A stretch of DNA of 64,000 bases from an uncultured Verrucomicrobiae bacterium (GTDB lineage: Bacteria > Verrucomicrobiota > Verrucomicrobiia > Chthoniobacterales > UBA10450). Every line of letters starts with the position of its first letter. Position 1 is the first letter of the stretch. The translations under genes and the position numbers were made by a program. Below, in pieces: positions 1 through 26,299 of the stretch. Location: the NCBI GenBank assembly GCA_963742545.1, contig CAVUMF010000008.1, positions 1,085-65,084 on the forward strand, read 5' to 3'. The notes under the pieces were generated by a model. The model did not search any database, was not told the DNA's origin, and worked only from the letters and a program-made list of their open reading frames with translations.

Positions 1-115
1 GCGGCGCCCGGTCGCCGAGTTTGGTTGGGAAAAGGAAATTCGGTCTTGCCGTTCCCCGCCTCACTGATCATAACTGCGAGAAACGCTCTCTGAGCAAACC
101 GAAAGGACACCCGCC

Positions 116-646
116 ATGACAGTCAACACCACACCTCAGATAATAGTTGCCCGACGCCGTTTCCACTACTGCCTTGCGGTGATCGCAGCGTGCACGTTGT
201 GTTTTGCCGGATCGAGCCGCGCCCTGGGCGGCGAAGCCAAAGGCAAACTGAACTTCAAAGGCACGACTCTTGTCCTGAAGTTTGCCTATCTCGTCAAAGG
301 CCCGGACGCCGTCGATCCCAGCAACAAGATTCGGCGCCTGATCTTTTCCGGGACCGATCTGGGCCCGAAGCTGAAGGCCTGCACCAAGATGAGCTGTACC
401 GATAGCGCGGTAGCCGAAGGCATGACGGTGGACCTAAACGGCGGACCGCGGATCAACTACTGGGTCGTACTCAAGGGCGGCTTGGTGCAGTATTCCGGCA
501 CCGTCGAGCCTTCAGCTTTGAAAACCAAAGCCGACGAGCCGGCGAAGCTGGCCGGGACCCTGACCATCGACGATGCTGCGGCCCATGGCGCGAAGGTCGA
601 AGTCGAATTCGACGCCGCCCTTCTGAAGGAGTTCACGACCGATTGA
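116..646 (+). CDS. hypothetical secreted protein
   Basis: 176-aa ORF with a hydrophobic signal-like N-terminus (HYCLAVIAACTLCFAGSSRALG). No family recognised. Confidence 0.45.
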   Translation: MTVNTTPQIIVARRRFHYCLAVIAACTLCFAGSSRALGGEAKGKLNFKGTTLVLKFAYLVKGPDAVDPSNKIRRLIFSGTDLGPKLKACTKMSCTDSAVAEGMTVDLNGGPRINYWVVLKGGLVQYSGTVEPSALKTKADEPAKLAGTLTIDDAAAHGAKVEVEFDAALLKEFTTD

Positions 647-756
647 GGATGTGCTCGGGGTGTAGAGCCCCGGGAATACTTAAAGCGGCTGCCAGGCGCC
701 ATGCCGTCAGCGACGTGCTGAAGTTTCGGACTGATATCAAGTAAGGTCGAACGACC

Positions 757-1488
757 ATGAGCCGAAACTTTGAGGAACTCGATTACCGCGAAACGCCGCT
801 TGGCGAACTGATCCTGCGCCGACGGCGGATGCTCTCGTTAGGCGGGATGGAGGTCTACGAGGTCAAGCTGGGCGACGCGTTCCTGATGTCGAGCCTGTTC
901 CATGAAGTGGAAGTGGCGCTCGCACACGTTGGTTTATCGGAGTTGAAAGGCACGTCGTGGGACGTGGTGGTCGGCGGCCTCGGGCTTGGCTACACTGCGA
1001 CGGCGGCCCTCGAGCATCATGAGGTCGCCTCCCTTCTCATCGTGGATGCTCTGTCTCCGGTGATTGAATGGCATCAAAAGGCTCTCGTGCCGCTGGGCGA
1101 GAAGCTTACCGGTGATCCGCGCTGCAGGATGTTGCATGCCGACTTTTTTGCCTGCGCGCGATCCGCGGAAGGATTCGACGCGGCGCAACCGGGCCGGCTC
1201 TTCCACGCCGTGCTGCTGGATATCGATCATTCGCCGCACCATTTCCTTGACCCGAGCAACGCCGCTTTCTACCAACCAGAAGGACTGCGCTCGCTCGCCG
1301 CTCATTTACATCCGGGCGGCGTCTTCGCCCTTTGGTCCGATTACCCGCCGGACGAAGATTTCCTCGGCACGCTCGGCAGCTCTTTCGCGACGGCGCGGGC
1401 GCACATTATAAGTTTTCCCAATCCGCTCCTGGAGGACACATCGGAGAGCACGGTCTATGTCGCCTGCAAGGCCGACGAAGCCGCCTGA
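757..1488 (+). CDS. spermidine synthase-like class I SAM-dependent methyltransferase
   Basis: 243-aa ORF. Glycine-rich motif VVVGGLGLGYTA and acidic LLDIDHSP are typical of Rossmann-fold methyltransferase/spermidine-synthase-like proteins. Confidence 0.55.
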   Translation: MSRNFEELDYRETPLGELILRRRRMLSLGGMEVYEVKLGDAFLMSSLFHEVEVALAHVGLSELKGTSWDVVVGGLGLGYTATAALEHHEVASLLIVDALSPVIEWHQKALVPLGEKLTGDPRCRMLHADFFACARSAEGFDAAQPGRLFHAVLLDIDHSPHHFLDPSNAAFYQPEGLRSLAAHLHPGGVFALWSDYPPDEDFLGTLGSSFATARAHIISFPNPLLEDTSESTVYVACKADEAA

Positions 1489-1489
1489 G

Positions 1490-2626
1490 TTATTGCGACA
1501 ATTTCTGGTTGGCGTCGATCAGAGCGTGGGTGGTGGCTGTGGCTTGGCAGTGAGTTTGTTGACCAATGCGTTGGTCGCTTTTTCCAGGGTGATTCCCCAC
1601 GCGCTCATCACCGAGAGGGTTGCGACGACGATGAGCAGAAAGACCCAGATCGGTAGCTCGCGAATGCGCAATCCGAGCCAGATAACGTAGGGCTGATGGA
1701 CCAGATAGATGCCGTAGGAGAAGGCGCCGACCAGCCCGAAGACCCTGGCCGGGTAGGGGAAGCGCGCGATGATTCCAGCCAGCGCCTGCCAGGACAAGGA
1801 AACAGCAAGCGCCGGTGGCGAAGTCGACAAAGATGTAAGGGACAAGGCCGTGATAGAGCTGGAGCGCTGCGGGATAGAGCAGCACTCCGGTGACCAGCCC
1901 GAAGCCGCCGAGGAGGAATCGTTCGACGCGATCTTGCGATCGGCCGGCCCACATTCCCAGAGCCATGCCGAGGGCGAATTCCGGCAGCCGGCAAATGGCG
2001 CAGCCGCCCAGGACCCACATGCCATTCTGTGGATAGGGGACGAGCATCAGGTAGCGCACGAAAAATCCCACGGCGCACGCGACGAGCAAAAAGGCCGATG
2101 GCCCAAGTTTTCTCGCGCCCCAAAAGAGAATCGGGAAAATCAGATAGAACTGAATGAGCATGGAGAAATACCACCAGGCTGCATTCAGGTAGAAGAAGTT
2201 CATGCTGATATCGATGAAGCGCAGACCGAGGAGGCTGAGCACGATCCGGCTATCGACTTTCTCGAAACGCGCCACGAAAGGCGAAACGAGATAAACCAGG
2301 TGCGCGACCCAATACATCGGGTAAAGGCGGAAAAGCCGCGACCGATACCACGCGCCCCACGACACCGGCCCCGACGCGGCCCGGCGCTCCGTCGATTGCA
2401 TCAGCACCCAGCCGCTCAGGATGATGAACGCCCCGACCGCATGGAAACCGAGTCCGGAGATTTTCACCCAGGCGATACCGAGAAAAGTCATCAGGCCGGT
2501 CGCGAAGCTGCTCCAATCGGCCGGGGGGAGCGACCCATGCTCGAAGTAGGTCATGAAAAAATGAAAATAAACGACCACGAGAATGGCCAGGCCTTTTGAA
2601 ATATCGAGCCAGAGAAGTCGCTTCAC
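1490..2626 (-). CDS. acyltransferase family 3 membrane protein (O-acyltransferase type)
   Basis: 378-aa polytopic ORF. N-terminus RLLWLDISKGLAILVVVYFHF matches the conserved start of acyltransferase_3 proteins. Confidence 0.75.
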   Translation of the reverse strand: MKRLLWLDISKGLAILVVVYFHFFMTYFEHGSLPPADWSSFATGLMTFLGIAWVKISGLGFHAVGAFIILSGWVLMQSTERRAASGPVSWGAWYRSRLFRLYPMYWVAHLVYLVSPFVARFEKVDSRIVLSLLGLRFIDISMNFFYLNAAWWYFSMLIQFYLIFPILFWGARKLGPSAFLLVACAVGFFVRYLMLVPYPQNGMWVLGGCAICRLPEFALGMALGMWAGRSQDRVERFLLGGFGLVTGVLLYPAALQLYHGLVPYIFVDFATGACCFLVLAGAGWNHRALPLPGQGLRAGRRLLLRHLSGPSALRYLARIAHSRATDLGLSAHRRRNPLGDERVGNHPGKSDQRIGQQTHCQATATTHALIDANQKLSQ

Positions 2627-2695
2627 GGTGGTTCGGTTAACAGTGCGAGCGCAAATTAGAAAGGAAGAAGTTAAACGTCCGCGCGGCCTAACGAA

Positions 2696-3544
2696 TCAGA
2701 TCGTGACCCGTCTTTCGACCACGACCAAAGCGATGCCGCCCAGGACGGCGACGGCGGCGAGGACAAATCGCAAGCCAAGGGGCTCGCCGAGCAAAAGAAT
2801 GCCGCCGGTGGCCGCGAGAACCGGGACGCTAAGCTGAACGGTGGCGGCGCTGGCAGCTTTCAGGCCCGGGAGCACGCTGTACCAAATGACGTACCCAACC
2901 CCGGAAGCGATCGCACCGGAGAGGATGGCGTAGACGACTCCGGCGCGATCGACCCGCGCCCAGGGAAAGAAGAAGATGCTGAGCGCGGCAGCGAAGGGGA
3001 CGGCCCGCAGGAAGTTGCCGGTTGTGGCACTGGCCGGACTCTTCTCGCCCTTGCCGCGGAGCGAATAAATACCCCAGGCCACCCCGGCGGCAAGCATCAA
3101 GGTCGAGCCACCTAACGATGGTGACGCGAGACCGGGAAACACGAGCAGAACAAGCCCGCCTGCGGCCAGAGTGAGACCGAGGACCTGGCGTGCATGGAGC
3201 TGTTCTCCTTTGCGCAGACCCCAGAGGATCATCGTGGCCTGGACCGCGCCGAAGAGAAGCAATGCGCCTGTGCCGGCCGCGAGGCTGTTATAGGCAAACG
3301 AAAAGGCAGCCGCATAAACGAAAAGGGCCAGCGCGGAGGGCCAGTTACCGGCGCTCATCGAACTCTTGCGGCGCAGTTTCATGATGAGCCAAAGGGCAAC
3401 GGCGCCGGAAAAGATGCGGATAAAGGTGAAACTGGCCGCGTCGATGCCGGTGTGTTTCAAGGCCGCTCGGCAGAGCAAAGAGTTGCTCGCGAAGGCTATC
3501 ATCGCTGTCAGTGTGAGGATGAAAATCCGCGTCGGTTTCACCAT
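2696..3544 (-). CDS. EamA/DMT family transporter
   Basis: 282-aa ORF with about ten hydrophobic helices arranged as two EamA-like halves. Confidence 0.75.
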   Translation of the reverse strand: MVKPTRIFILTLTAMIAFASNSLLCRAALKHTGIDAASFTFIRIFSGAVALWLIMKLRRKSSMSAGNWPSALALFVYAAAFSFAYNSLAAGTGALLLFGAVQATMILWGLRKGEQLHARQVLGLTLAAGGLVLLVFPGLASPSLGGSTLMLAAGVAWGIYSLRGKGEKSPASATTGNFLRAVPFAAALSIFFFPWARVDRAGVVYAILSGAIASGVGYVIWYSVLPGLKAASAATVQLSVPVLAATGGILLLGEPLGLRFVLAAVAVLGGIALVVVERRVTI

Positions 3545-3683
3545 TATCTTTCGCGAGCCGACACGATGCGAGCCTTGCCTAACGACACATCTTCAATTCC
3601 GGGCGCTCGATTGTCATTTGACGCTCCAAAAGCCAAGGTCGAGCTGCATGATTTTTCCGGTGTCGGTTCGTTCGGCATGAGAT

Positions 3684-3756
3684 CATGAGAAACCACCGGA
3701 AACCCATTGGCAAGTACGCCGTCCACTGTTCGCGAGACGATTGCATCTGCGGTGCC
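3684..3756 (+). repeat. copy A of a ~73-nt imperfect direct repeat (partner at 4651-4723)
   Basis: catgagaaaccaccggaaacccattggcaagtacgcc... aligns to 4651-4723 at roughly 75% identity by eye. Confidence 0.6.
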
Positions 3757-3917
3757 TGGCGGCTCCATTTCGGGAGGCGCAAGAGGCAGAGAACTGGGGA
3801 ATCGTCCCCTAGGGCCGAGTTTACTACCCAGGACCGATCGTCGCAATCCGCAGTAACTTTCCAGATCCGGATACGCAGGACACTAAGACCGGTAGTTGGA
3901 CGCGGTGTCGTTAAGGA

Positions 3918-4493
3918 TTGCCGACTGTGTCTGGAGCATGGCTTGATCTTGACCGAACTAACATATACTATCGCGGCATGACTTCGAGATCTTTTCGTGT
4001 ATTTCTACCGAGAAGCAACTCAAAAGTAATCTTCATCCTGGCGATGTCGTGTTACGCAATTACGCTAACGACAGTTGAAACTCGTTTTGTCCAACTTCTT
4101 CGGACATGGCCGGCAGTCGACAAAAGCATAGAGCATGTAGTTTCCCCAATCGCACCACCTATTAACCAATCCTCAATCGTGGATCTTTTGCTGCTATCAC
4201 CAGCTGGCGAGTCGTTGATAATGATCGGTATTATTGGATTCGTTCGACGAATACGATTGTCTACAGGGATTCAGGTGGTAGTTGCCACGTGCGTGATCTG
4301 TCTCCTCCATTCGCTTCGATATACGCTATGGGGCTTTATTGTTGCACCGGCCTTTTTGATTGATGCTGGTACCTATGTCTATTGGCGACGGCGGGAATCT
4401 GCATGGGTGGGAGCACTAATGATGTTCATCTTGCATGCTTGCTTCAATTCGGTGGCGACCGTTAGCGTCATAACCGCCCGGCTTTACAAATAA
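3918..4493 (+). CDS. membrane protein in a low-GC islet, weakly CPBP/CAAX-protease-like
   Basis: 191-aa hydrophobic ORF in a visibly AT-richer stretch. LLHSLRY and ILHACFNS resemble CPBP motifs 2 and 3, but the EExxxR motif is not clear. The start may instead be the ATG at 3978. Confidence 0.35.
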   Translation: MPTVSGAWLDLDRTNIYYRGMTSRSFRVFLPRSNSKVIFILAMSCYAITLTTVETRFVQLLRTWPAVDKSIEHVVSPIAPPINQSSIVDLLLLSPAGESLIMIGIIGFVRRIRLSTGIQVVVATCVICLLHSLRYTLWGFIVAPAFLIDAGTYVYWRRRESAWVGALMMFILHACFNSVATVSVITARLYK

Positions 4494-4650
4494 GTGAGGG
4501 GTCAGGAATTACGGGGTCATGAGGAAATTAGCAGTCGGATAATATGAAAGGAGTTCTCCTTTTCGCTTTGGCTCGTTTCCCAAACCTCGCGACTCCTCGA
4601 ACTGCTTTCACGTTATCAGACTGTTATCACCTATTCCGGGCTCGCAGGGG

Positions 4651-4723
4651 CATGAGAAACCGGCGGGAACTCATTGGCAAGTATGCTGTGTAACGATGGC
4701 GAGACAATCGCACTGCGCTGCCC
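4651..4723 (+). repeat. copy B of the ~73-nt imperfect direct repeat
   Basis: catgagaaaccggcgggaactcattggcaagtatgct... lies about 70 nt upstream of the ORF starting at 4790. Confidence 0.6.
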
Positions 4724-4789
4724 CATGGAGTTCGGAAAGCGCGAGGCCTGCGCTTTCCTATTAAGGCGACTTCTGCTTAGAATAGCCCC

Positions 4790-5296
4790 ATGAACTCACC
4801 CGGTCCGCTTGCGGTTCAGCCCGGCAGCAATGAGAACGATCATTGGAAGTTTCTGCGCGACGTTCTCGTCTTTCAGCTCAAGATGTTTTTCTCCAATGTA
4901 CGCGACTTCGCGCTTATGCCCGTGTCGCTCATTGTGGCCGTGATTGATTTGATCTTCAAAGGCCGGCGGCAAGGCGCGCTTTTCTATCGCGTGCTGCGAT
5001 GGGCCGCGCACAGCGAGGAGATGATCGATGTCTACAGCGCGATCAAGACGCAGGAAAGACCCGAGGTGAATCCCAAATACACCGTTGATGCCGTGATCGC
5101 GCGGCTGGAGGGCGTGCTGGTGCGGGAGTGCGAGAAGGGCGGAACGGCCGCGAGCGTCAAGACGGCGATGGACCGGGCGATCAATCAGATCCAAACCGAG
5201 GCGAGCAAACCGCGCGACCGGGCGACGCAGGCAGTCGCGCGCGTGACCGACAGGTTGCGCAGCAGTTTCGAAAACAAACCGCGGGACGGAGGTTAG
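4790..5296 (+). CDS. hypothetical protein with one or two N-terminal TM helices
   Basis: 168-aa ORF with high-GC codon usage. No family recognised. Confidence 0.45.
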   Translation: MNSPGPLAVQPGSNENDHWKFLRDVLVFQLKMFFSNVRDFALMPVSLIVAVIDLIFKGRRQGALFYRVLRWAAHSEEMIDVYSAIKTQERPEVNPKYTVDAVIARLEGVLVRECEKGGTAASVKTAMDRAINQIQTEASKPRDRATQAVARVTDRLRSSFENKPRDGG

Positions 5297-5414
5297 AAGC
5301 CATCTCATGAATGGCCGCGCAGATGTAGCCACGGCGCTCTGTTGCCGTGCCACGCCCCGACAGAGCGGGGCGGCTACAGCAGAAGCCGCGGCACGAATAT
5401 TAATGAGATGGCTT
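5297..5414. repeat. 118-nt imperfect palindromic element
   Basis: Perfect 12-bp outer arms AAGCCATCTCAT (5297-5308) and ATGAGATGGCTT (5403-5414). Inner arms tgtagccacggcgctctgt / acagagcggggcggctaca. Starts immediately after the stop codon at 5294-5296. Confidence 0.7.
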
Positions 5415-5466
5415 TCTAGTGCAGTGCATCACTTGAACCGAGACCATCGGCTGCGGGCGCGAGCCT

Positions 5467-5514
5467 GGACGCGCGGAAGCGCGTCCCTCCGGAGGGACAT
5501 GCTTCCGCATGTCC
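5467..5514. terminator. triple-hairpin/cruciform motif between convergent genes (candidate bidirectional terminator)
   Basis: ggacgcgc-ggaa-gcgcgtcc (5467-5486), ccctccggaggg (5485-5496), ggacatgc-ttcc-gcatgtcc (5495-5514). The outer two hairpins have perfect 8-bp stems. No U-tract. Confidence 0.35.
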
Positions 5515-5563
5515 ATGCTCTGCCCTGCCGGTCTCGATTTCTCTGATACACTGCACCAGGTCG

Positions 5564-6355
5564 TTAGGGCAGCAGCTCTACGGCATCGCCTTTACGAATC
5601 ATTCCTTCGGCCAGGACTGCGCCATAGAGGCCGGCGTTTCCGCCATGCTTTTGCGCCACGGCCTTCAACACGGCGGGCGCTTTTTCGCCTGTCTCCGGAT
5701 CGAGCATGATGACCATGCAGCGCGGGTCGCGTTCGACAACGGAGACAACGACTTTTTCTCCGATGCGCAGAGAGCGACCAACGAACCGTTCCTCGGCAAA
5801 ACCTTCCGGGTTCGTTAGGTCGAGGTAAAGGTTGGCCCGGAAGCAAAGCTTGTTGATTTCGATGCCGGTTTCTTCGGCGAGCTTTTTCACCGATTGCAGA
5901 GCGAAGAGCGACAAGGGGCGGCAATCCGTCAGAGCGCGCTCCGAACGCATCAGGGTGATTTCCGGGGCGGGATCGATCCCGGCTCGCAGCAGATCGACCA
6001 ACGCCGGGTCGTCGATCGCGATGGTTTTCCCGGCGGGCGTTTCCACATCAAGCGCCAGGTCCGCCGGATCGGCGTAAAGCGGAGTGGCTCCCGGCGGCAT
6101 TTTTTCGGCCTCGGAAAGGTTAGGCGGCGCAATCGCCTTCGCCGGCTGGCGAAAGCGCGGGCGATAGCGCAGCATTTGGCGCTGATCGCGCGCCGTGAAA
6201 TAAGGAAATCCCCTGGGCGCAGTCGAGCTGCGAAAGGCATAGAGCCGATCGCCATACACTCCGGCGAAGCCGGCGAAGAGTTCGGCCATTTCTTCTCCGC
6301 GCATGCTTTTCACGGGATAGCGCCAAAGGCTTTCGACTCTGCCGATCACGTTCAT
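5564..6355 (-). CDS. MOSC domain-containing protein
   Basis: 263-aa ORF. N-terminus GRVESLWRYPVKSMRGEE is the MOSC N-terminal beta-barrel signature. The C-terminal half is MOSC-like. Confidence 0.8.
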   Translation of the reverse strand: MNVIGRVESLWRYPVKSMRGEEMAELFAGFAGVYGDRLYAFRSSTAPRGFPYFTARDQRQMLRYRPRFRQPAKAIAPPNLSEAEKMPPGATPLYADPADLALDVETPAGKTIAIDDPALVDLLRAGIDPAPEITLMRSERALTDCRPLSLFALQSVKKLAEETGIEINKLCFRANLYLDLTNPEGFAEERFVGRSLRIGEKVVVSVVERDPRCMVIMLDPETGEKAPAVLKAVAQKHGGNAGLYGAVLAEGMIRKGDAVELLP

Positions 6356-10021: not shown

Positions 10022-10288
10022 ATTTCTCCTTCGTGCTGCTTGCTGGAAAGAGTGCCCAGTCTCATGGACGGCACGCCTTTCCGTGGCTTTTGTCATGTGA
10101 CATTTCTGCAAAATTTTACCAGCACGAGAGCTTCGTCGCAAGGCGGCGACCAGATTTATCGGGAGGAATATTTGGCTTGCGAGACCGGGCGTTCATCGGT
10201 CGGTCGCGACACCAGATGCAATTCGTTCGCACCGACGAAAACCTCGAAGTTGCGCCGGTGTGGATTCTGCAAATACTCGGAGATATTC

Positions 10289-10684
10289 ATGATGCTGCGT
10301 CAAGGCAATGGGCTTGTCGATACGCCCAGCAGGCACTCGGTGGACGATACCGTCGGCAAACTTGAGACGATTCTCCAAGCCAAGGGGATTTCGCTGTTCG
10401 CGCTGATCGACCATAGCGGAGAAGCAGCAAAAGCTGGAATGACGATGCGTCCCACCAGGCTATTGATTTTCGGAAATCCGAGGGCCGGCACTCCCGTGAT
10501 GCTTGCTGCGCCGAGTAGCGCCATCGACCTGCCTCTAAAGATCCTGGTCTGGGAGGATGCTCAGGGAAAGGTTTGGGTGACCTACAATAGTTCTATCTAT
10601 CTGCAGGAGCGGCATGGTATTCCACCGGAACTGCTGCCCAACATCGCGGTAATCGAGACATTGGCGACGAAAGCCGCGGAATGA
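10289..10684 (+). CDS. DUF302 domain protein
   Basis: LLIFGNPRAGTPVMLAAPSSAIDLPLKILVWEDAQGKVWVTYN is characteristic of DUF302. Start set at the internal ATG-ATG at 10289. Confidence 0.7.
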   Translation: MMLRQGNGLVDTPSRHSVDDTVGKLETILQAKGISLFALIDHSGEAAKAGMTMRPTRLLIFGNPRAGTPVMLAAPSSAIDLPLKILVWEDAQGKVWVTYNSSIYLQERHGIPPELLPNIAVIETLATKAAE

Positions 10685-10783
10685 TAAAACTCTGCGACGT
10701 GGGATAACCAAATCTCGTCAAATCGAAGCGGCTGCACGAGTGCCATGTTCGAAAGAAATCGTATTTATCTCCAAGGAGGTTCC

Positions 10784-11710
10784 ATGAATTGCGTATCCAA
10801 TCTTCGTCTCGTGCCCGCCGTAATCGGGTCGTCCTTCCTATTCGCCTTATCTTTGGCGTCGATTCCCACCGCACTCTCAGACGACAACATTGATTCACGG
10901 ACGGCGGAGGTTGATGGCGTGCAACTGCATTATCTGACCGCCGGTCGCGGTCCGGCGCTCATTCTCCTGCATGGTTATGCAGAAACTTCGCGAATGTGGA
11001 AAGCGATTATCCCCCAACTGGCAGAGAAGTTCACCGTAATCGCGCCCGATTTGCCGGGGATCGGAGATTCCGCGATTCCGGCGAACGGTCTTGATATGAA
11101 GACGTCTGCGATCCGCATTCACGCGCTCGCTCGCAAGCTCGGAGTGGAGAAAGCGAGAGTTGTCGGACACGATATTGGTCTCATGGTGGCCTATGCATAC
11201 GCCGCGCAGTTCCCTGACGAGACGGAGAAGTTGGTGGTGATGGATGCATTCCTGCCCGGCGTGCCCGGATGGGAAACGATCTACAACGATCCAAATATCT
11301 GGCATTTTCGTTTTCACGGCCCAACTCCGGAAGCTTTGGTGAAAGGACGAGAACGGATCTTCTTCGAATACTTCTGGAACGATCTCGCTGCCGACAAGAC
11401 ACGTTCCATTCCGGAAGCCGATCGGAAAGCCTATACCGCGGCTTACTCCCGACCGGGGCGAATGCGCGCCGGTTGGGCTTACTTTGTTTCTTTTCAGCAA
11501 GCCGCGAAGGATTTCGAGCAACTTGCGCAGACCAAGCTGACGATGCCAGTGCTGTCAATCGGCGGGGATAAGTCGCTGGGTATTCAGCTTGCCCAGCAGA
11601 TGAAGCTGGTGGCTTCCAATGTCACCGTTGTCGTGCTGAAGGACACGGGACATTGGGTTTTGGAAGAGCGGCCCAAGGAAACAACCGAGGCGCTTGTAAA
11701 GTTTCTCTGA
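10784..11710 (+). CDS. secreted alpha/beta hydrolase (epoxide hydrolase/haloalkane dehalogenase-like)
   Basis: AAGGAGG lies 4 nt upstream of the ATG at 10784. Has a signal-like N-terminus, HGYAETSRMW, and the GHDIG nucleophile motif. Confidence 0.75.
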   Translation: MNCVSNLRLVPAVIGSSFLFALSLASIPTALSDDNIDSRTAEVDGVQLHYLTAGRGPALILLHGYAETSRMWKAIIPQLAEKFTVIAPDLPGIGDSAIPANGLDMKTSAIRIHALARKLGVEKARVVGHDIGLMVAYAYAAQFPDETEKLVVMDAFLPGVPGWETIYNDPNIWHFRFHGPTPEALVKGRERIFFEYFWNDLAADKTRSIPEADRKAYTAAYSRPGRMRAGWAYFVSFQQAAKDFEQLAQTKLTMPVLSIGGDKSLGIQLAQQMKLVASNVTVVVLKDTGHWVLEERPKETTEALVKFL

Positions 11711-11839: not shown

Positions 11840-12980
11840 TCAGGGCTTGAGGTGAGGGTTTAGCAGGTGAAGGATGACTTTCTCCATCCCGGCCACGACG
11901 CGTGTCATCGAGTCGTAATCCAGTTTGTCCGGCGTGTCGCCAGCCGAATGGTAGTACGGATACCGAAAAGGTGCCGTGTCCGTCACCATGATACCGGGAT
12001 AACCGCGCTGCCAGAATGACCATTGATCCGACCAGCCGACACCGGGTACCATGGCAGGCAAGGCACCGCCTTCGGACGGAATCTGCGCTTCCCGGCGAAA
12101 ATCGCCGATAACGTTGCGCAGCAAGGATCGCGAACCGACGTTGCTGACAAAGCCAATAAAGTTCTCCGGTTCGCGGATAGATCAGGGCGAGCCCGGGCAC
12201 GGGATATTTTTGCGAACCTGATTGGCTGGAGAAGTAGCCGATCGTTTCGAGGCTGATCATCGCCTCAATCTGGTCGCCATGTTCCCGAGAGCGACTGGCG
12301 TAGACGAAGCTACCCATCTGCGGGGTTTGAAAGTAACCGGGCTCTTCATTGACGAAAGCGACAATGCGCAAGGTCTTCTCGTTAGGCTGGCCGGCCAGGC
12401 GATGCGCGAGGGCGAGGAGCGCCGCGACTCCGCTTCCGTTGTCGTTCGCACCGGGCGAGCCGTAAACCGAGTCGTAGTGGGCGCCAACGAGGATAATCCC
12501 CGGGGAAGCGCCGGCCAATTCCGCCTCGAGGTTGTAACAGCTCTTGCCCTGAACCTCATATCCATCGCGCCGCACCTTCCAGCCGCTCAGCTCGCTTTCG
12601 ATGTAATGAGCCGCTGCCTGGAGCTGTGGGTAATGCGCCAGGTTTCGCTCGCCAATTTCACCGCCCAGCTTTTGCACGTGAGCGATCAGTTCGTCGCGGA
12701 GCTTCTTTTCGTCCGCGGAAAGCGGCGGGGCATGCCCGCGGAAACTCTCTCCCGGCATCCGGATCATGACCAACCATCCTACCATGAGCAGGAGGACAAG
12801 GCCGGACCAAAAGAGGATGCGAATCGATCGAATAATTTTCGAACGACTTCGCCCGCTCATTCTGCTGGATCTACCTTCTCGCATCACGGAAATCAACGCG
12901 GATGGGGGCGACCTGTCGAAATCGTCGCCAGACTTTTCTGAAAAAATTCCATCGACTCTTTTGCCTCGATCCTTTTTCAT
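11840..12980 (-). pseudogene. M28 family aminopeptidase with a 1-nt frameshift near 12160-12170
   Basis: The N-terminal part (GAHYDSVYGSPGANDNGSGVAALLALA, VNEEPG) reads through ...LIYPRTGE and then loses sense. The conserved continuation NFIGFVSNVGSRSLLRNVIGDF...WSDQWSFWQRGYPGIMVTDTAPFRYPYYHSAGD is in another frame (ORF 11840-12124). GGAGG precedes the ATG at 12980. Confidence 0.75.
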
Positions 12981-18890: not shown

Positions 18891-20684
18891 CTACTGGACT
18901 GTTAGCGTCAGATCGTTTCCGTCGCCGCCTTCGTAGTTGGCTTTGAAGGTGTTGTTTCCAACTGTGATCGTGCCGCCATCGGGAAGGTTGGCGAAGGTTC
19001 CGCTAATCGGGGTCGTAGAAGTATTGCTGATGACCGTCGCGGTCTTGCGCGCGGGGAGGCTGCGGTTCGGTGCGGTCATGGTGAATTGCGCGCCGCTCAT
19101 GATCGTCACTCCGTTGGCGACGATCTCGGCACTCTTGTTCTTCAAGCCAAAGTTATAGGTTGCATCGGCATTGAAGGTCAGCAGCCCTTGGATGGTGAGA
19201 GTCACCTTCTTGTTTGTGCCAAAGCCGGGCTGCAGGATCGCGCCGCTGTTGCTCCCGGTTCCGACCGTGACTGCGCCAGCGATCGTGCCCCCGCCCCCAA
19301 GGGTGCCTCCATTGACCGCTATGCTCCCAGTGCCCGTCGCCGAGCCGCTGGTGTTGCTCGCGATCAGGGCACCCGCGTTGATCGTCGTTCCCGCCTTGTA
19401 GGTGTTTGCTCCGCTTAAGGTGAGAGTTCCCGTGCCGCTCTTGCTCACTCCACCGCTGTTCTGGATGATGCCGGAGAAACTGGTGCTCATATTATTGCTC
19501 CCGACATCCAGGAGGCGTCTGCTGAGCGACACCGTTCCTTGCCCCGACAGGGAGCCGATTACAGCCGAGGGCTGGCTCAAGCCGGTTAAGTCCATCGTCG
19601 CATTGCCCAAAACTTGGAATTGCACCTGGTCCAAAGTGGTGGGCCGGGAGTTTATCGTAATCATACCGCCCAAGCCGCCATTGGTTCCTCCCTGTGCCAC
19701 GACGACCGTTTCGCTGGAGTCGGCAATGTTATGAATCTCGAGCAGGCCGCCTTGCGCGCCGCTCCCCTGGCCACCGCTGGCGGTGAAGGTCGCATGGCCT
19801 GTCCCGCCGTAGCTATAGACCTGGCCGCCCTGGGCTCCGGCGATGGTCGCCCCGTTGGCGAGGAAGCTGTTCCCGGCACAGATCGCGCCGTCGATCTCCG
19901 TCCAGCCGCCCTCCGCGCCCGTCACCGTCGCTGCATTGCCGATAAAGGTGGCAGTTCCGATGTTGCCGCCGGTGTAGATATAGGTGCTACCGGCTGCCGC
20001 CCCATCCACTTCCCCCGGTTGGTTAATGAATGTGGCGGCTTCCGCGGTCGAATCGCTAAGCACATCGGTCGATGCCCCCCGTCACGGTTCCACTCACCTT
20101 TCCGCCCTCATTAATAATCGTCGCATTGCCAGCGCTGGCAGTGTCGGTAAAGTCAAGGCCAAAATTGGTTGCCCTCCGTAAGCGCCATCACCGATGCTTG
20201 ATCCACTGCCCTGATTGGTAATGACCACATTTTCGCCCGCCGACGCAGAGCTCTGAAAATAAATCGCTGCCGACTGCTGTCCGTCCGGCCCAGGAGCCGC
20301 TTCGGCAATCAAGTTTTGAATTTGCCCGGAGTTATTGACAATGCCGGTGCCGAAGAAAGCAATAATGTCAGAGTAGGTCGTGGCCGTCGAGGGCGTCGAA
20401 ATCAGCGTGTAGGCGCTGGCCCCGGGAGTAAACACAATCTCAGCAACGTCATTGTCCGCATTTTGTATGTCTGTTGCCCCACCGACCATGATGTCAGTGA
20501 CATTCGAGGCGCCAAAGGTCGCAACGTCGGTTTCACTGTTCGGCACGCTCGCGGGAGTCCAATTCTCCGCCGTATTCCAGAGGTTGTCGGTCGGATTCTG
20601 ATTCCAGGTTGCACTCTCAGCAATGACGTGCGGACCCAAAGCGATCGCGCAAAAGGACAGAAGAAAGAGTAGGCTGTTTTTCAT
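18891..20684 (-). pseudogene. autotransporter-associated beta-strand-repeat surface protein, broken by two frameshifts
   Basis: Signal peptide MKNSLLFLLSFCAIALGPHVIA, W-rich N-terminus (ATWNQNPTDNLWNTAENW), G/T/N-rich beta-strand repeats, and the typical C-terminal end NYEGGDGNDLTLTVQ. The frame changes near 20167-20171 and at the C6 run 20075-20080. Confidence 0.75.
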
Positions 20685-21432
20685 AAAAATTGCCCGAAGA
20701 TTACTTAAGGTGGGCGTCCAGATATTCAATCACATCGGTACTGACCAGTGTGCATGATGGGGTGGCCCCTTCGGGATTATCGCAACTCTCCAACAATAGA
20801 AGGAATGTATGAGCGTGCAGGTGTCTGAGGCGTCATGGGTTTGGGTCCTTTTTTGAGTTCTATCCTCCTTAGGAGGCATTTACAGAATCCACATAATTAA
20901 GTAAAGATAATTCGCGTTACATTTTTGCAACCTCACCGAAAAGGTTTGGAAAAAAGTCCCCCGCCCTCTGCCGAGGAGGGTGCCTAATGCAGGCCGAATT
21001 ATGATCGAAGGAGATTTGGCCCATTTTGGTAGCTAGAGGCAATGTTCGGCACGCACCTAATAGGAGAAGTAAGCCAATGAGAACACTAGCGGGGCAGGAG
21101 TAGGCGTCACCCATTAGGGCGTGGGTCAAACGGTAGAAACGTGTCCGTCCCGATTTTTTCTGTCGGTTAGTCTGCTGCGTTTAATGAAAGATCAGTTTTT
21201 GAGGCGAGCCCGCCGTGGCGGGGTGATTCGAACCCGTTATTTCGTTGGCTTGATTTTCGAAGCGCTTGGTTGAGGCGAGCGATCCGTTCAGTCACCATCT
21301 GGGTCTAGCGCCTTGAGTTTTTGAACCGAAGGGACTGCCGAAAACTGGGCAATTCCCTTCGGCCCGATTTGCTTGGAGTCTTACACGCCTTTTACGGCGG
21401 CGGCTCCACACGGTCAAGCGTACCCACCCGAA

Positions 21433-21849
21433 TCATCTCGGGGCCGGAAAACATTCAGCGCACTGCGCCACACTCTGGCGAAAAAGCCGGGCAAAGACCT
21501 CCGCTCCCCAGCGCCGCCGCGCCTTGGAGAGCACGCTGTGATTGGGGATCTCGTCCTCCAGGTTGTAACCCAAAAACCAGAGATAATCGATCCGCAGCGG
21601 GATGATGCGCATCAGTTCCCGCTCGCTCCGCACGTTGTCCCAAAAGAGCAGGAGCATCATCTTCATCACGATCACCGGATCGACCGAGACATTCCACTTG
21701 CGCCCATAGGAGCCAGCCACCTCCTCACGGACGAAATCCAGCTTGAGCGTCTCCCTCAGCTTGCGCAACGGATGATCCGCCGGAATCCGCCGGGCCAGGT
21801 TCACCGGCTCACTCCACAATTCGTTCTGCCTGGCATGCTCTCCCATCAT
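21433..21849 (-). mobile_element. IS5-family transposase N-terminal fragment (DUF772-type domain), 3-prime truncated
   Basis: PVIVMKMMLLLFWDNVRSERELMRIIPLRIDYLWFLGYNLEDEIPNHSVLSKARRRWG matches the transposase InsH-type N-terminal domain. The DDE catalytic part is absent. Confidence 0.7.
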
Positions 21850-22020
21850 GGGAACAGTGCTTTAGCAAATCCCACTTCGCTTGGGTACCTTTATTTTTTG
21901 GCCCCTCCATTTGGGCAACAACCCGTTTAGACGCGACCCCGATAGACTCGCTGCAAAAAGCCTCTCTCGGGCAACAGTCCGTCTTAGCCTGACCCCAATT
22001 TGTCCGTTCGCCGGAACTCA

Positions 22021-22365
22021 CTATCGCAAGCCGTGTGTATCTTTCCATTGGTTCAAGGCAGTTGAACCGCGTTCTGTAAGGGCAAACCAAACTTCTGGAG
22101 AATTGAGTTCAAGAGGGATCGTCGCTACAGCAACGAGATGGCGTTTTGTGCGATCATACACCAAGACATCTATCAATTTGGAACTCGCCAGACGACGAAC
22201 TGCGGCTTCCACATCAGCCTCGGTAAAATCTGATGGCCAGAGCTTCCGCCAACCAAACTCGGGTGTGTTCAGTAACTTCGTTATCGTTTCGATCGATTCG
22301 ATGTCGTCGAGAAGGCAATCCGCAACTGCCATATCCATCGAGCCGCTGGAAACAGGAACAGCCAT
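22021..22365 (-). CDS. putative immunity protein for the upstream RHS-type toxin
   Basis: 114-aa acidic ORF starting 8 nt after the toxin stop, same strand, with lower GC than the surroundings. No family recognised. The assignment rests on position only. Confidence 0.5.
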   Translation of the reverse strand: MAVPVSSGSMDMAVADCLLDDIESIETITKLLNTPEFGWRKLWPSDFTEADVEAAVRRLASSKLIDVLVYDRTKRHLVAVATIPLELNSPEVWFALTERGSTALNQWKDTHGLR

Positions 22366-22372
22366 TATCTGA

Positions 22373-23494
22373 TCACTCTCCAGTCCTCGGCTTATACATT
22401 GGCCGTGGATGTTCTTCTAAGACCTTGCCTGTGTCCGTCACTCGAGTGTGAGTAATGACTTGTTCACCGCTCTTCTTGTTCTCCCAGATCGTTTGAATGC
22501 TCGCGCCTTCGTCTTTCTTTAATGGTTCGGTGTGAGCTGATTTCTGAACCCAATCGGCAGACTTGCTGTTAAAATCCTTCAGTATTTCTCGAAAAGAACG
22601 TCCTGCGGTTTGTTCGGCTTTGACAGCAGTTCCTGCTTCCTTCCCCGCAGTCGACAGCAACTTTTTGCCTATGGCCACTTCGCCTTTTCCATTGAGCATT
22701 CCTACGGCTATACCGCCGAACGATCCAAGCTTATAAGCACTAGAATCCTTGTCGACTGTAGCTGCGTAACCAGGATAGAAATGCTCCACAATCCTTTCGC
22801 CCTGACCGAGTGTCACCATGTCACCTAATCCGGCTATGAAGTCTCGCTCCGGAAATAGTCCCATCGGGTCTGTCAGATCGAGTGGATCATTGGAGCAATA
22901 GCGATAGAGATTGTAATCCCCGGCATCGAAGCCTTTGGGGTCTTCGCTCATGAAGCGCCCAATCGTCGGGTTGTAAGCCCGGGCGCGGTATTCGTAGAAA
23001 CCAAAGGTCGTGTTCCATTCCCGGCCGGTGAAAAGGAAGCGATTGTTGATCGCCGGCTGCCCGGGGCCGACCGTGACCGTTGGCAGTCCAAAGGCGTCGT
23101 AGCGATACGATTCCCGGACCGTGTTCACCCCGTCGGTCACCACGCTGATGTTGCCGTTGCGGTCCGGGAAATACCACCAGCCTTGCCCGTTCACTCCCCG
23201 CTCGATCATTTCGTCCATCTCGCGCCCGTAAATCGCGTTGCTGATATTGGTTCCATTGGCGTCGTATTCCATGATCCAATGTTCCCCGTCATAGAGGTAG
23301 TAATCGGTCACCGCTGTCCCTCCGTTGATCACGGTGGTGCGTTTAACGCAACGCCCGAGCGCGTCGTAAAAGAGGGTGTAGGAATTGTTGCCCGTGGTCG
23401 TGGCCGCTTTCGCCAGGTAGGTGTCCCCGATATACTGATAGTTCGTGCCGTTATAGGAGCTGATTTCGTGCGAAGCACCGTTGGTCACTGCCAT
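22373..23494 (-). CDS. RHS-core C-terminal fragment with unrecognised toxin tip
   Basis: From the ATG at 23494: MAVTNGASHE...YD-type repeats...YRARAYNPTIGRFMSEDPKGFDAGDYNLYRYCSNDPLDLTDPMGL (RHS repeat-associated core with the PxxxxDPxGL boundary), then a 160-aa lower-GC tail (22376-22855). Confidence 0.7.
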   Translation of the reverse strand: MAVTNGASHEISSYNGTNYQYIGDTYLAKAATTTGNNSYTLFYDALGRCVKRTTVINGGTAVTDYYLYDGEHWIMEYDANGTNISNAIYGREMDEMIERGVNGQGWWYFPDRNGNISVVTDGVNTVRESYRYDAFGLPTVTVGPGQPAINNRFLFTGREWNTTFGFYEYRARAYNPTIGRFMSEDPKGFDAGDYNLYRYCSNDPLDLTDPMGLFPERDFIAGLGDMVTLGQGERIVEHFYPGYAATVDKDSSAYKLGSFGGIAVGMLNGKGEVAIGKKLLSTAGKEAGTAVKAEQTAGRSFREILKDFNSKSADWVQKSAHTEPLKKDEGASIQTIWENKKSGEQVITHTRVTDTGKVLEEHPRPMYKPRTGE

Positions 23495-23920
23495 ACCGTG
23501 ACCGTCGGCAACCCAAAGGCGTCGTAGCGATATGATTCCCGGACTGTGTTCACCCCGTCGGTCACCACGCTGATGTTGCCGTTGCGGTCCGGGAAATACC
23601 ACCAGCCTTGCCCGTTCACTCCCCGCTCGATCATTTCGTCCATCTCGCGCCCGTAAATCGCGTTGCCGGTATTGGTTCCATTGGCGTCGTATTCCATGAT
23701 CCAATGTTCCCCGTCAAAGAGGTAGTAATCGGTCACCGCTGTCCCTCCGTTGATCACGGTGGTGCGCTTAACGCAACGCCCGAGCGCGTCGTAAAAGAGG
23801 GTGTAGGAATTGTTGCCCGTGGTCGTGGCCGCTTTCGCCAGGTAGGTGTCCCCGATATACTGATAGTTCGTGCCGTTATAGGAGCTGATTTCGTGCGAAG
23901 CACCGTTGGTCACTGCCATG
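23071..23920. repeat. tandem direct duplication, 2 x 425 bp, about 98% identical
   Basis: Unit 23071-23495 repeats at 23496-23920 with about 10 substitutions and no indels by eye. 425 is not a multiple of 3. Confidence 0.9.
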
Positions 23921-25254
23921 CTGTGGCCGGTGGTGTACTGGTTCAGATTGTTCACCGCGTAGGTCTTGGTGGTCCCCGCATCCACTACCTGCGTCCGGTT
24001 GCCCATCTTGTCCAGGGTGTAATTGACCACCCGGACCGAATCCGCCTGGTTCGTGTGCGAGCGCCCGGACCCGCTCCCTTTTTTGCGTATCGCGCCGTGG
24101 CCCGGATCGGTCCGGTCGAAGAGCGCGCTCGTCATGGCCGAATCGTTGTAGCCGCTCTTGAAGGTAATGGCTTTGAGGGTTGGGGTGGTATTGGCCGCAA
24201 TCACCGTTGTGCCCCCGCTCGCGACCACCGTCCCGTGGGTCGAAGTCGGGGTCGAGCCGTCCTTGGTGAAACTGATCGAGCCACCGCTGGTGGTGGTGGT
24301 CAGGGTCACGGTCATGGGCGTGGCGGGATGTGTCCCCTCGCTGCAACCGGGCGGAGTAAAGACCGGTTGCGCGCAGGTTACCGAGTGATCGACCCGGTCG
24401 AAAATGGCGCTCGTGATGGTTGAATCGTTGTAGGCTGCGCCAAAGGCGATGGCCTTGAGCGTGGACGTGGTGTTGGCGGCAATGGTCGCCGTCCCGCTCG
24501 TCCCATTAATGAGCGTGCCGTAGGTCTCAGTGGGATCAATCCCGCCAGTGGTGTAACGCATCTGCGCGCCAGTCGAACTGGTGCTAATCGTTACGTTCAG
24601 GCTGGTCGCCGGATGGCCGCCCCCGTTGGAGTTGGGCGGAGTAAAGACCGGGGCGGAGGCGAGCGGAGCGTAATCGTGCCGGTCAAAAAGCGCGCTTACC
24701 ACATTGGAGTCAAGGAAGTTTGTTCCATAAGCCATCGCCTTCAGCCAGACGGAGGTACTGGCATAGACGATGATCGTTCCGCTGCTGGCATTAATGAAGT
24801 GGCCGTGTGTTTCCGTCGGAGTAGACCCGTCGTTTGTCCATGAGATCAGGGCAGAGCTCGAGGTCGTTGAGACCGTGACGCTCAAATCCGTCGCGGGATG
24901 GGAACCGGTCGAGTTGGCGGGATTGAAGGTGGGGGTGGCAGCCGTGGGGGTATGATCGGTGCGATCAAAAAGCGCGCTGGCCACGGCGGAAGTCGTATAG
25001 CCAGTCTTGTAAGCGACTGCTTTCAAAGTAATCGAAGAATTGGCCGAAATTGTCACCGGCCCGGTGTAGATTGTCCCGACGGTTGCGGTAGGCGTGGTGT
25101 TATTGGTCGTGTAACGGATGGATGCGCCGGAGGTGCCGGTCGTGATGGTTACGTTTAAGGAGGTGGGCGGGTGGCCGCCGGAGCTGGAATTAGCCGGATT
25201 GAACGCCGGCATGGCTGCTCTCTTTCCTGGCACGCCATCATCGGCAGACGCCAT
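23485..25254 (-). CDS. RHS-type polymorphic toxin, N-terminal part (five chitobiase/hexosaminidase-C-like beta-sandwich repeats plus start of RHS core), truncated by the duplication
   Basis: Five ~85-aa repeats of the pattern FNPANS..HP.T.L.VT..T...A.I.YT.DG.TPT......Y....I......LKA.A...GY..S.V.SALFDR. These are followed by YTLDKMGNRTQVVD...YDALGRCV...WYFPDRNGNISVV...YRYDAFGLPTVTV, then a stop at the repeat junction. Confidence 0.75.
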   Translation of the reverse strand: MASADDGVPGKRAAMPAFNPANSSSGGHPPTSLNVTITTGTSGASIRYTTNNTTPTATVGTIYTGPVTISANSSITLKAVAYKTGYTTSAVASALFDRTDHTPTAATPTFNPANSTGSHPATDLSVTVSTTSSSALISWTNDGSTPTETHGHFINASSGTIIVYASTSVWLKAMAYGTNFLDSNVVSALFDRHDYAPLASAPVFTPPNSNGGGHPATSLNVTISTSSTGAQMRYTTGGIDPTETYGTLINGTSGTATIAANTTSTLKAIAFGAAYNDSTITSAIFDRVDHSVTCAQPVFTPPGCSEGTHPATPMTVTLTTTTSGGSISFTKDGSTPTSTHGTVVASGGTTVIAANTTPTLKAITFKSGYNDSAMTSALFDRTDPGHGAIRKKGSGSGRSHTNQADSVRVVNYTLDKMGNRTQVVDAGTTKTYAVNNLNQYTTGHSMAVTNGASHEISSYNGTNYQYIGDTYLAKAATTTGNNSYTLFYDALGRCVKRTTVINGGTAVTDYYLFDGEHWIMEYDANGTNTGNAIYGREMDEMIERGVNGQGWWYFPDRNGNISVVTDGVNTVRESYRYDAFGLPTVTVWQ

Positions 25255-25409
25255 ACTTCCTTCCAGCCTAACAACTATAAACTGAGTCTACGCAGCCCTG
25301 GCTTTGAGCAACACGCCCTCAAACACTTGACATTTCGATTCGACTCATTCGTTAAGCGTGTCTTGTCGGTCAGTCGCTGCTCCACGAACGGAACGCGCCG
25401 CAGGACGTT

Positions 25410-26299
25410 CTACTTGAATACTGCTGCGATGACTCGTCCTACTTCGGCCATGGCCGCGAGCCGGTCGGTCGGCGATACCGTCGAGTCGACGGAATAGACA
25501 GTGACAAGGATAGGCGCCTGGCCCGGCGGGCGCAGGATGGCGATGTCGTTGGTTGCGCCGTGGGCGCCGCGGCCAGTCTTGTCGCCCACCCGCCAGTCCC
25601 TTGGGACGCCAGCCCGGAGCATTTCGGCTCCGGTCTTGTTTTCTCTCAGCCAGGTTTCGAGCTGTGTGCGCGATGCCGATGACAAGGCATCGCCAAGAAG
25701 AAGCGTCCGCAGGTTGCCGAGCATTGCGGCGGGAGTGGTCGTGTCGCGTTCGTCGCCGGGAATGGCGCTGTTCAAATCGGGCTCGACGCGGTCCAGCCTG
25801 GTCTGTTGGTCGCCGAGCGCGCGCGCATAACGAGTCAAGCCCTCAGGGCCGCCGATCGTCTTGAGGAGGAGGTTGGCGGCGGTGTTGTCGCTTAGCTCAA
25901 GCGCGGCGGCGCAGAGCGCCCCGAGCTTCATCCCACCTTCCTTGACATGCTCCGTCGTCACAGGCGCATACTCGAGCAGGTCCGCTCTTGTGTAAGGAAT
26001 GAAGCGAGTCAGATCTGGTCCTGCTTCTCGTCCACGCGATGGAGCACAGCGGCAACAGCGAGAAACTTAAACGTGCTGCACATCGGGAAGCGCTCGTTCG
26101 CGCGGTGCTCGAGGCGTCGGCCGTTGCCCGTGTCGAGAGCGGCAACGCCCAGACGACCGCCGACACTCTTTTCGATGGCCGCGAGTCGTTTCTCCGCGGT
26201 GTCAGAACCTGAGGCCGGTTCGGTTGCCTGCGCTTTGATCAGGGACGACAAGACGAGTCCGGCAAAGATAAGTCTCAGGACACCTGCCGGCACGCTCAT
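25410..26299 (-). pseudogene. class A beta-lactamase with a 1-nt frameshift near 25985-26010
   Basis: The N-terminal ORF has a signal peptide and the STFK active-site motif ([10 protein letters not shown]). The second ORF has SDN, the E166 context (RVEPDLN) and KTG. The conserved [19 protein letters not shown] is readable only after shifting frame. Confidence 0.8.

Follow-up and report, generated by a model that had tools for sequence, protein, structure and literature searches.

The 64-kb window analysed here (64,000 nucleotides of contig CAVUMF010000008.1, from an uncultured bacterium of the Chthoniobacterales) carries on its minus strand an RHS-type toxin gene that is interrupted by what looks like a 425-bp tandem duplication. 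The locus belongs to a familiar class, the Rhs-type polymorphic toxin arrays with orphan modules, which are named after their rearrangements; in E. coli and Salmonella, the rhs loci have been described both as arrays of main and orphan toxins and as sites of rearrangement (Poole et al. 2011, PMC3150448; Koskiniemi et al. 2014, PMC3967940). Comparison with the intact array of a sister strain, present on a metagenome contig of the ENA (L001; 14,178 nt; ERZ25039463), reveals that the window is this same array minus 4,878 bp. The two copies of the apparent duplication are paralogous segments of two different toxin genes, a main gene and an orphan, which have been joined bluntly, out of register and with a frameshift. 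The features of the disrupted gene, including its open reading frames (ORFs), are the following.

23485..25254, minus strand: upstream ORF of 589 aa, corresponding to the 5' portion of the main gene, with four CHB_HEX_C_1/Fn3_assoc domains, a linker and YD repeats
24105..25180, minus strand: four internal repeats of ~94 aa, CHB_HEX_C_1/Fn3_assoc (direct-repeat family D2; 4 stretches in Pfam)
23495..23919, minus strand: unit copy 1, of the main-gene type (YYLF..TNTGN), 100% identical to L001 1457-1881 (gene 1)
23494..23495, no strand: blunt junction between main gene and orphan, placed by a three-way breakpoint comparison
23070..23494, minus strand: unit copy 2, of the orphan type (YYLY..TNISN), 100% identical to L001 6760-7184 (orphan gene 3)
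22373..23494, minus strand: downstream ORF of 373 aa, derived from the orphan, with a YD segment, the Rhs-associated core and C-terminal toxin 3
22856..23101, minus strand: RHS repeat-associated core, ending in DPMGL (TIGR03696; residues 577-658 of the repaired protein, with coordinates computed by setting residue 446 at ATG 23494)
22373..22855, minus strand: variable C-terminal domain (toxin 3), 160 aa plus the stop, of no known family
22021..22365, minus strand: candidate immunity gene 3, 114 aa, from the ORF list, its immunity role suggested by position only

The sole large tandem repeat that the program TRF (Tandem Repeats Finder) detects in the window lies at 23070-23919, where it scores 1637 for 2.0 copies with a period of 425, 97% matches and 0% indels. 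In the best register (23070-23494 versus 23495-23919) the two head-to-tail units differ by 9 mismatches and no indels, and shifting the register by a single base (23071/23496) raises the count to 10. The original prediction, which was made from the sequence of the window alone, had described near-identical 425-bp head-to-tail copies with about 10 substitutions and no indels, and on this point both TRF and the register comparison agree with it. When the differences are read in the frame of the gene, six of the nine are synonymous and three are non-synonymous (F/Y, T/I and G/S). The latter correspond to the YYLF/YYLY and TNTGN/TNISN peptide variants that had already been singled out and that the gene-frame comparison reproduces. 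A 6:3 split of this sort has a probability of P=0.006 under neutrality, that is, with random substitutions; the synonymous bias is explained by the evolution of each copy within a working gene. The variable positions are concentrated near the 3' end of the 425-nt unit, since it is there that the similarity of the paralogues declines. Searches of the 64-kb window by blastn and tblastn recovered no copy of the unit besides these two, and the first 39 nt of the unit gave 0 matches in the JGI metagenomes.

The consequences for the reading frame that had been predicted are also borne out. The upstream ORF, which runs from 25254 to 23485, is truncated two codons past the junction (..LPTVTVWQ*), and the removal of one copy, whichever of the two is chosen, leaves 2457 nt that form a single ORF of 818 codons from 25254 to 22373. 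The 373-aa ORF that starts at ATG 23494 is an annotated gene in the source record (P0123, 100% identity, 373 aa). The repaired protein of 818 aa contains four CHB_HEX_C_1/Fn3_assoc domains, one Pfam RHS repeat, a full TIGR03696 core and a C-terminus of 160 aa. The RHS/YD repeat (PF05593; residues 556-587) scores 25.0 bits against a cut-off of 22; the Rhs_assc_core (TIGR03696) scores 69.9 bits against a cut-off of 32.5, is matched over the whole profile (1-76 of 76) and ends in ..SNDPLDLTDPMGL, following the PxxxxDPxGL pattern. On these scores the gene was rightly assigned to the RHS type. The N-terminal half of the toxin gene is filled by the four ~94-aa repeats, which have a period of 282-285 nt and a DNA identity of 62-83%. 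Between the last Fn3_assoc domain and DPMGL, the YD/core region measures only ~250 aa and there is no shell of ~1000 aa; in the sequence matches to the PDB (Rhs, TcC/YenC2, teneurin), only the last ~180 residues of the shell (range ~100-240), up to DPxGL, are covered. Judged from these matches, the protein is a short "RHS-core" polymorphic toxin and not a full-shell Rhs; it differs from the Rhs proteins of E. coli and Salmonella both in its four CHB_HEX_C_1/Fn3_assoc domains and in having ~250 aa of YD/core instead of a shell of more than 1000 aa.

The sister array was found by a protein search, which returned an intact relative of 834 aa (99% identical) on L001. There, gene 1 (851 aa) is followed in order by an ORF of 139 aa, gene 2 (834 aa), an ORF of 168 aa and the orphan gene 3 (481 aa), and downstream of gene 3 come the same 114-aa ORF and the same fragment of an IS5-type transposase as in the window. 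In the orphan gene, the core and the toxin are preceded only by the end of the fourth CHB domain. All three genes have a common core and unrelated C-termini after DPMGL, a motif past which the mismatches between paralogues jump from 0-7 to 31-36 per 50 nt. Each toxin on L001 is followed by one small ORF (139, 168 and 114 aa), none of them with a family match; we refer to these as the putative immunity genes I1, I2 and I3. In the window, the 114-aa ORF begins 8 nt past the toxin stop and is preceded by GGAGAG.

The C-terminus of toxin 3 gave nothing in Pfam at E<=1; this domain, the C-terminal domain of toxin 1 and I1, I2 and I3 matched no family in Pfam/NCBIfam, and that of toxin 2 gave a weak HExxH metallopeptidase hint only (Peptidase_M91, E=0.003, under the cut-off). 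No PAAR, VgrG, type VI secretion system or other secretion-linked domain was found in the toxin protein or in the ~20 adjoining ORFs scanned. The N-terminus of the toxin (MASADDGVPGKRAAMPAF..) displays no signal peptide evident by eye and no recognised domain known to target proteins for secretion.

A second contig of the same assembly (L002; positions 1-5668; ERZ25039463) has the same array, with 96.7% identity to L001, so that at least two strains with the toxin array coexist in that sample. Gene 1 of L002 has several frame breaks, and its gene 2 is full-length and has an orphan-type unit and a mosaic core end, which indicates an in-register exchange between paralogues. Arrays with 2-4 copies of the core, and with orphans that start at varied positions of it, are common in the related metagenome-assembled genomes (MAGs) of Chthoniobacterales and other Verrucomicrobiota. 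When the GTDB was scanned with the core protein, the nearest representatives were MAGs of the Chthoniobacterales, the best of them with 80% amino acid identity, so that the source species is not among the representative genomes; the scan yielded no second copy from the genome of the window.

BLASTN aligns the window from 25375 to 23495 with L001 1-1881 (99.5%) and from 23504 to 20807 with L001 6750-9449 (99.5%), and the 4,878 bp that separate these segments on the sister contig (L001 1882-6759) have no counterpart in the window. They hold the end of gene 1 with toxin 1, I1, the whole of gene 2 with toxin 2, I2 and the 5' end of the orphan; toxins 1 and 2, I1 and I2 were sought by tblastn in the 64-kb window and gave no match anywhere. 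Copy 1 is the gene 1 segment and copy 2 is the orphan segment, each with 0 mismatches over its 425 nt and in agreement at all 9 variable sites. Once the noisy first 38 nt of L001 are set aside, the window departs from this contig at 2 positions upstream of the junction and at 0 of the 1,716 nt downstream of it (L001 6760-8475). On L001 the counterparts of the two copies are 5.3 kb from each other, as paralogous segments and not as two alleles of one site.

The join itself can be located to the nucleotide. Gene 1 reads ...GTCACGGT followed by GGGCGCC, and the orphan reads ...GGCCACAGC followed by ATGGCAG; the window has ...GTCACGGT followed directly by ATGGCAG. No base is common to both sides at the join, and the only resemblance is an imperfect cgg.cac.g. 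(7/10) upstream of it. Both breakpoints fall within a block of ~860 bp that is common to the main gene and the orphan. In homologous coordinates, the left breakpoint lies 425 nt beyond the right one, at the place where the similarity of the paralogues begins to drop; the right breakpoint, at which the unit starts, coincides with no similarity boundary, the preceding 224 nt having at most 1 mismatch between paralogues. Because the breakpoints are offset in this way, a stretch of 425 nt is present twice, once from each paralogue, and mimics a tandem duplication of 98% identity; and because 425 is 2 modulo 3, the fused gene is frameshifted. The junction comes neither from a homologous crossover nor from microhomology slippage. 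Homology was probably involved in some way all the same, either in the cell, for example by an illegitimate end-join beside a homologous anchor, or in the assembler.

These results allow the origins that had been proposed for the repeat to be sorted. The original prediction had rightly held that the copies were not a fresh slippage product, as is consistent with the 100% identity of each to a different L001 paralogue, and that they stemmed from diverged rhs paralogues, as the 100% matches to two L001 genes and the 6:3 split (P=0.006) attest. The idea of a duplication has to be given up: 4,878 bp of the sister array are missing from the window, whose repeat is no more than the 425 nt by which the two genes overlap where they are joined out of register. 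An unequal crossover fits no better, since the join is blunt and without breakpoint microhomology, whereas a homologous exchange would be in register and in frame; and a collapsed allelic polymorphism is not where the two variants come from, both being paralogues on the single contig L001.

The reading that we favour, and to which we give about an even chance, is that a real deletion in the organism has fused the main toxin gene to the orphan. The starting state would have been a tandem array of RHS-type toxin genes such as that of L001, in which the main, second and orphan genes were each accompanied by a putative immunity gene. A deletion of 4,878 bp would then have cut the main gene where it begins to diverge from the orphan and fused it to the orphan at a site 425 nt further upstream in the homologous segment. 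The mechanism would have been illegitimate (non-homologous) recombination and not a crossover of the RecA type, since the join is blunt. As a result, the delivery half (589 aa) would end without core or toxin, and the half with the core and toxin 3 (373 aa) would have no translation signals of its own; toxins 1 and 2 would have been lost together with their putative immunity genes, and putative immunity gene 3 would be intact. The toxin gene is most likely now a pseudogene next to an intact candidate immunity gene 3. That the deletion occurred in the organism rather than in the assembly, the mechanism by which it did so and the loss of function are all points that we infer. Other lesions relative to L001 in the same neighbourhood (18.9-26.3 kb) are counted in favour of a real deletion, as is the intact state of the housekeeping genes in other parts of the window.

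Against this deletion, and in favour of an error of assembly, a number of observations have to be set. The error would have arisen if the organism had the full array, or an in-register variant of it, and the assembler misjoined the main gene to the orphan; 4.9 kb would then have been dropped and a 425-nt overlap left unmerged, so that the copies would still be paralogous and the junction would exist in no cell. We regard this explanation as a serious one, although it falls short of an even chance. The proteins that bear the junction are found in NCBI and ENA on one contig only, of 343,642 nt. Both breakpoints are located in the block of homology between the paralogues, the left one at the drop in similarity; such a placement points to a process that depends on alignment, as assembly does too. 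On either side of the join, the sequence and L001 are identical. The source is very probably a MAG from a soil community rich in strains, all of its close relatives in public data being MAGs or metagenome contigs; the sister contigs carry names in the style of metaFlye, and the window presumably comes from a pipeline of that sort, such as those for long-read soil MAGs that use Flye --meta and one round of Medaka (PMC12313526). Assembly graphs are hard to resolve where, as with L001 and L002, at least two strains with the array share one sample. The adjoining genes have damage of the indel type, and these local indels could have been introduced by faulty consensus calling (polishing) where a long-read metagenome assembly is heterogeneous for strains. 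By analogy with Salmonella (PMC3967940), moreover, the loss of I1 and I2 should be costly to a cell living beside siblings with toxins 1 and 2. The structure of the junction nonetheless sits poorly with the usual errors. Misjoins via shared k-mers or read overlaps would normally be in register and leave a single chimeric unit instead of two; the right breakpoint is at no similarity boundary; a random chimeric read would almost never link homologous genes that lie 4.9 kb apart in the same orientation; and the remainder of the window looks well assembled.

If the deletion is real, the junction might still be functional, a proposal that we consider unlikely. The overlapping ORFs would be translationally coupled, or the 373-aa product would be made from internal signals and act with immunity protein 3 as a toxin-antitoxin-like pair inside the cell, or the two halves would form a split toxin. 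The 373-aa ORF starts 7 nt ahead of the stop that closes the 589-aa ORF (ATGGCAGTGA), an arrangement that suits termination-reinitiation; candidate immunity gene 3 is intact; and in Salmonella the internal expression of Rhs toxins as toxin-antitoxin-like modules has been documented (PMC7043789). ATG 23494, however, has no Shine-Dalgarno sequence, in contrast to the start of the main gene, which has a strong one (GGAAGGAAG); a scan of 21800-25600 revealed no sigma-70-like promoter; and the ATG is an ordinary internal Met codon that is present in every paralogue. The original suggestion that expression could begin at this ATG therefore holds only in part: the 373-aa ORF exists and overlaps the upstream stop, but the Shine-Dalgarno sequence is absent. 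Programmed frameshifting across the junction was dropped, having no supporting signal. Least probable of all, to the point of being nearly dismissed, is a 425-bp tandem duplication that arose in situ in a single-copy gene and was followed by divergence or gene conversion. From the window alone it would be the simplest account of head-to-tail copies without indels. Yet the copies match two different L001 paralogues at all 9 variable sites and their flanks follow the same assignment, the synonymous bias (P=0.006) is unexpected in a dead gene, and the junction has no microhomology.

Known systems offer several close parallels. The locus resembles the Rhs main/orphan arrays in its conserved upstream part, which extends to the Rhs-associated core (DPxGL), in its variable C-terminal toxins, each with a small ORF, and in its downstream orphans, which retain homology to the core; in those arrays too, the toxin and immunity genes that lie between main gene and orphan are dropped when the two fuse. 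The Salmonella fusion arises by homologous crossover, in register, within 522 bp that are 95% identical; it yields a working chimera and comes after a locus duplication by which immunity is kept (PMC3967940). The window is like it in that both breakpoints are within the homology shared by main gene and orphan (the ~860-bp block), but its join is blunt, is 425 nt out of register and leads to a stop two codons past the junction. Nor does the window retain the main immunity gene, the putative genes I1 and I2 being without a tblastn match in its 64 kb. The esaG/tsaI arrays of the type VII secretion system (PMC9484751) are also similar: tandem, partly identical paralogues in an antagonism locus give rise to deletions and chimeras. 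The events described there are in-register homologous exchanges among immunity genes, whereas the join in the window is blunt, out of register and in toxin genes. False tandem duplications of assemblies, in which overlapping ends or haplotype variants stay unmerged, are likewise brought to mind by the adjacent, near-identical copies with few single-nucleotide polymorphisms, in a region heterogeneous for strains and paralogues and in a probable MAG; they differ in that the copies here are paralogous and 4.9 kb is also missing, so that a plain unmerged overlap does not explain the structure.

Whether the toxin gene array was rearranged in an ordinary way or misassembled, the gene is broken. What sets the locus apart is the non-homologous, out-of-register join, the short CHB_HEX_C-headed protein and the uncultured lineage of Verrucomicrobiota in which they are found. 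For annotation, the two ORFs are to be treated as one disrupted RHS-type toxin gene (main plus orphan), rather than as a duplication or a pair of genes. Should the junction be real, the Rhs arrays of soil Chthoniobacterales would lose toxin/immunity cassettes non-homologously, besides the known in-register exchange; if it is an artefact, it would be an example of a misjoin within a paralogue array in an otherwise clean-looking long contig. Neither outcome opens a long-standing question, and the relevance is mainly to annotation and quality control. A real blunt join might also represent the acquisition of an orphan toxin by homology-facilitated illegitimate recombination, or a split toxin of which both halves are made. 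We think either of these improbable, but if true, such a join, with the short CHB_HEX_C/Fn3_assoc-headed architecture, would be a case of a little-studied mode of assembling and reshuffling polymorphic toxins in soil Verrucomicrobiota.

The surroundings of the toxin gene are ordinary chromosome, with complex I genes, enolase and a tricorn-like protease, and the housekeeping genes elsewhere in the window are intact. Frameshift errors throughout the window were considered and rejected, the five suspect pairs of overlapping ORFs being unrelated intact genes (enolase, NuoF, FabD and others). Next to the toxin gene, on its upstream side, a class A beta-lactamase (25410-26299, minus strand) is split into ORFs of 96 aa, with the STFK motif, and 183 aa; the break is a 1-nt frameshift near 26010, where the sequence reads ..DQI* and then continues in another frame (TRFIPYTRADLLEYAPVTTEH..). 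Some 2.7 kb from the toxin junction, at ~20807, there is a second large structural difference, a clean deletion of 1,026 bp relative to L001 9450-10475, with 1 nt common at the join. It removes nearly all of an Abhydrolase_3/Peptidase_S9 gene of 402 aa, leaving the first ~25 and the last ~35 codons. A PATR-repeat gene (18891-20729, minus strand), intact in L001 (597 aa), is present as ORFs of 211 and 390 aa; two indels that lie 99 nt from each other split it, one of -1 at 20171 (in an A-run) and one of +1 at 20072. Downstream of candidate immunity gene 3, a transposase fragment closes the toxin array in the window and in L001 alike.

21433..21849, minus strand: N-terminal fragment of an IS5-type transposase (DUF772; Pfam E=1.1e-15), found at the same place in L001 (8405-8821)

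Over the 2.6 kb that follow the junction, the window differs from L001 by 9 mismatches, all of them clustered in this IS5 fragment (21563-21778), as is expected for a multi-copy element.

The candidate immunity protein of 114 aa also occurs in identical form on Logan short-read contigs of ~1 kb from three runs (ERR12040025, ERR12036782 and ERR11523651). The contig from ERR11523651 begins within the conserved end of the core, and the other two share the gene layout; these occurrences could mean that the samples contain several paralogues or strains. A long-read MAG of a related member of the Verrucomicrobiae (L018) has a homologous RHS-core gene at 10040-11366 that is frameshifted near ..VRESYRYDAFG.. 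and contains no repeated DNA. Overlapping high-scoring segment pairs had made it a candidate for a recurrence of the out-of-register join, which was rejected in favour of a plain frameshift. On the same contig, at 12173-12560, a 201-bp tandem duplication (1.9 copies, 86% matches) contains the start of a transposase-like ORF, MARAPRIEFEGAVYHVTARGNERRRIY.., twice.

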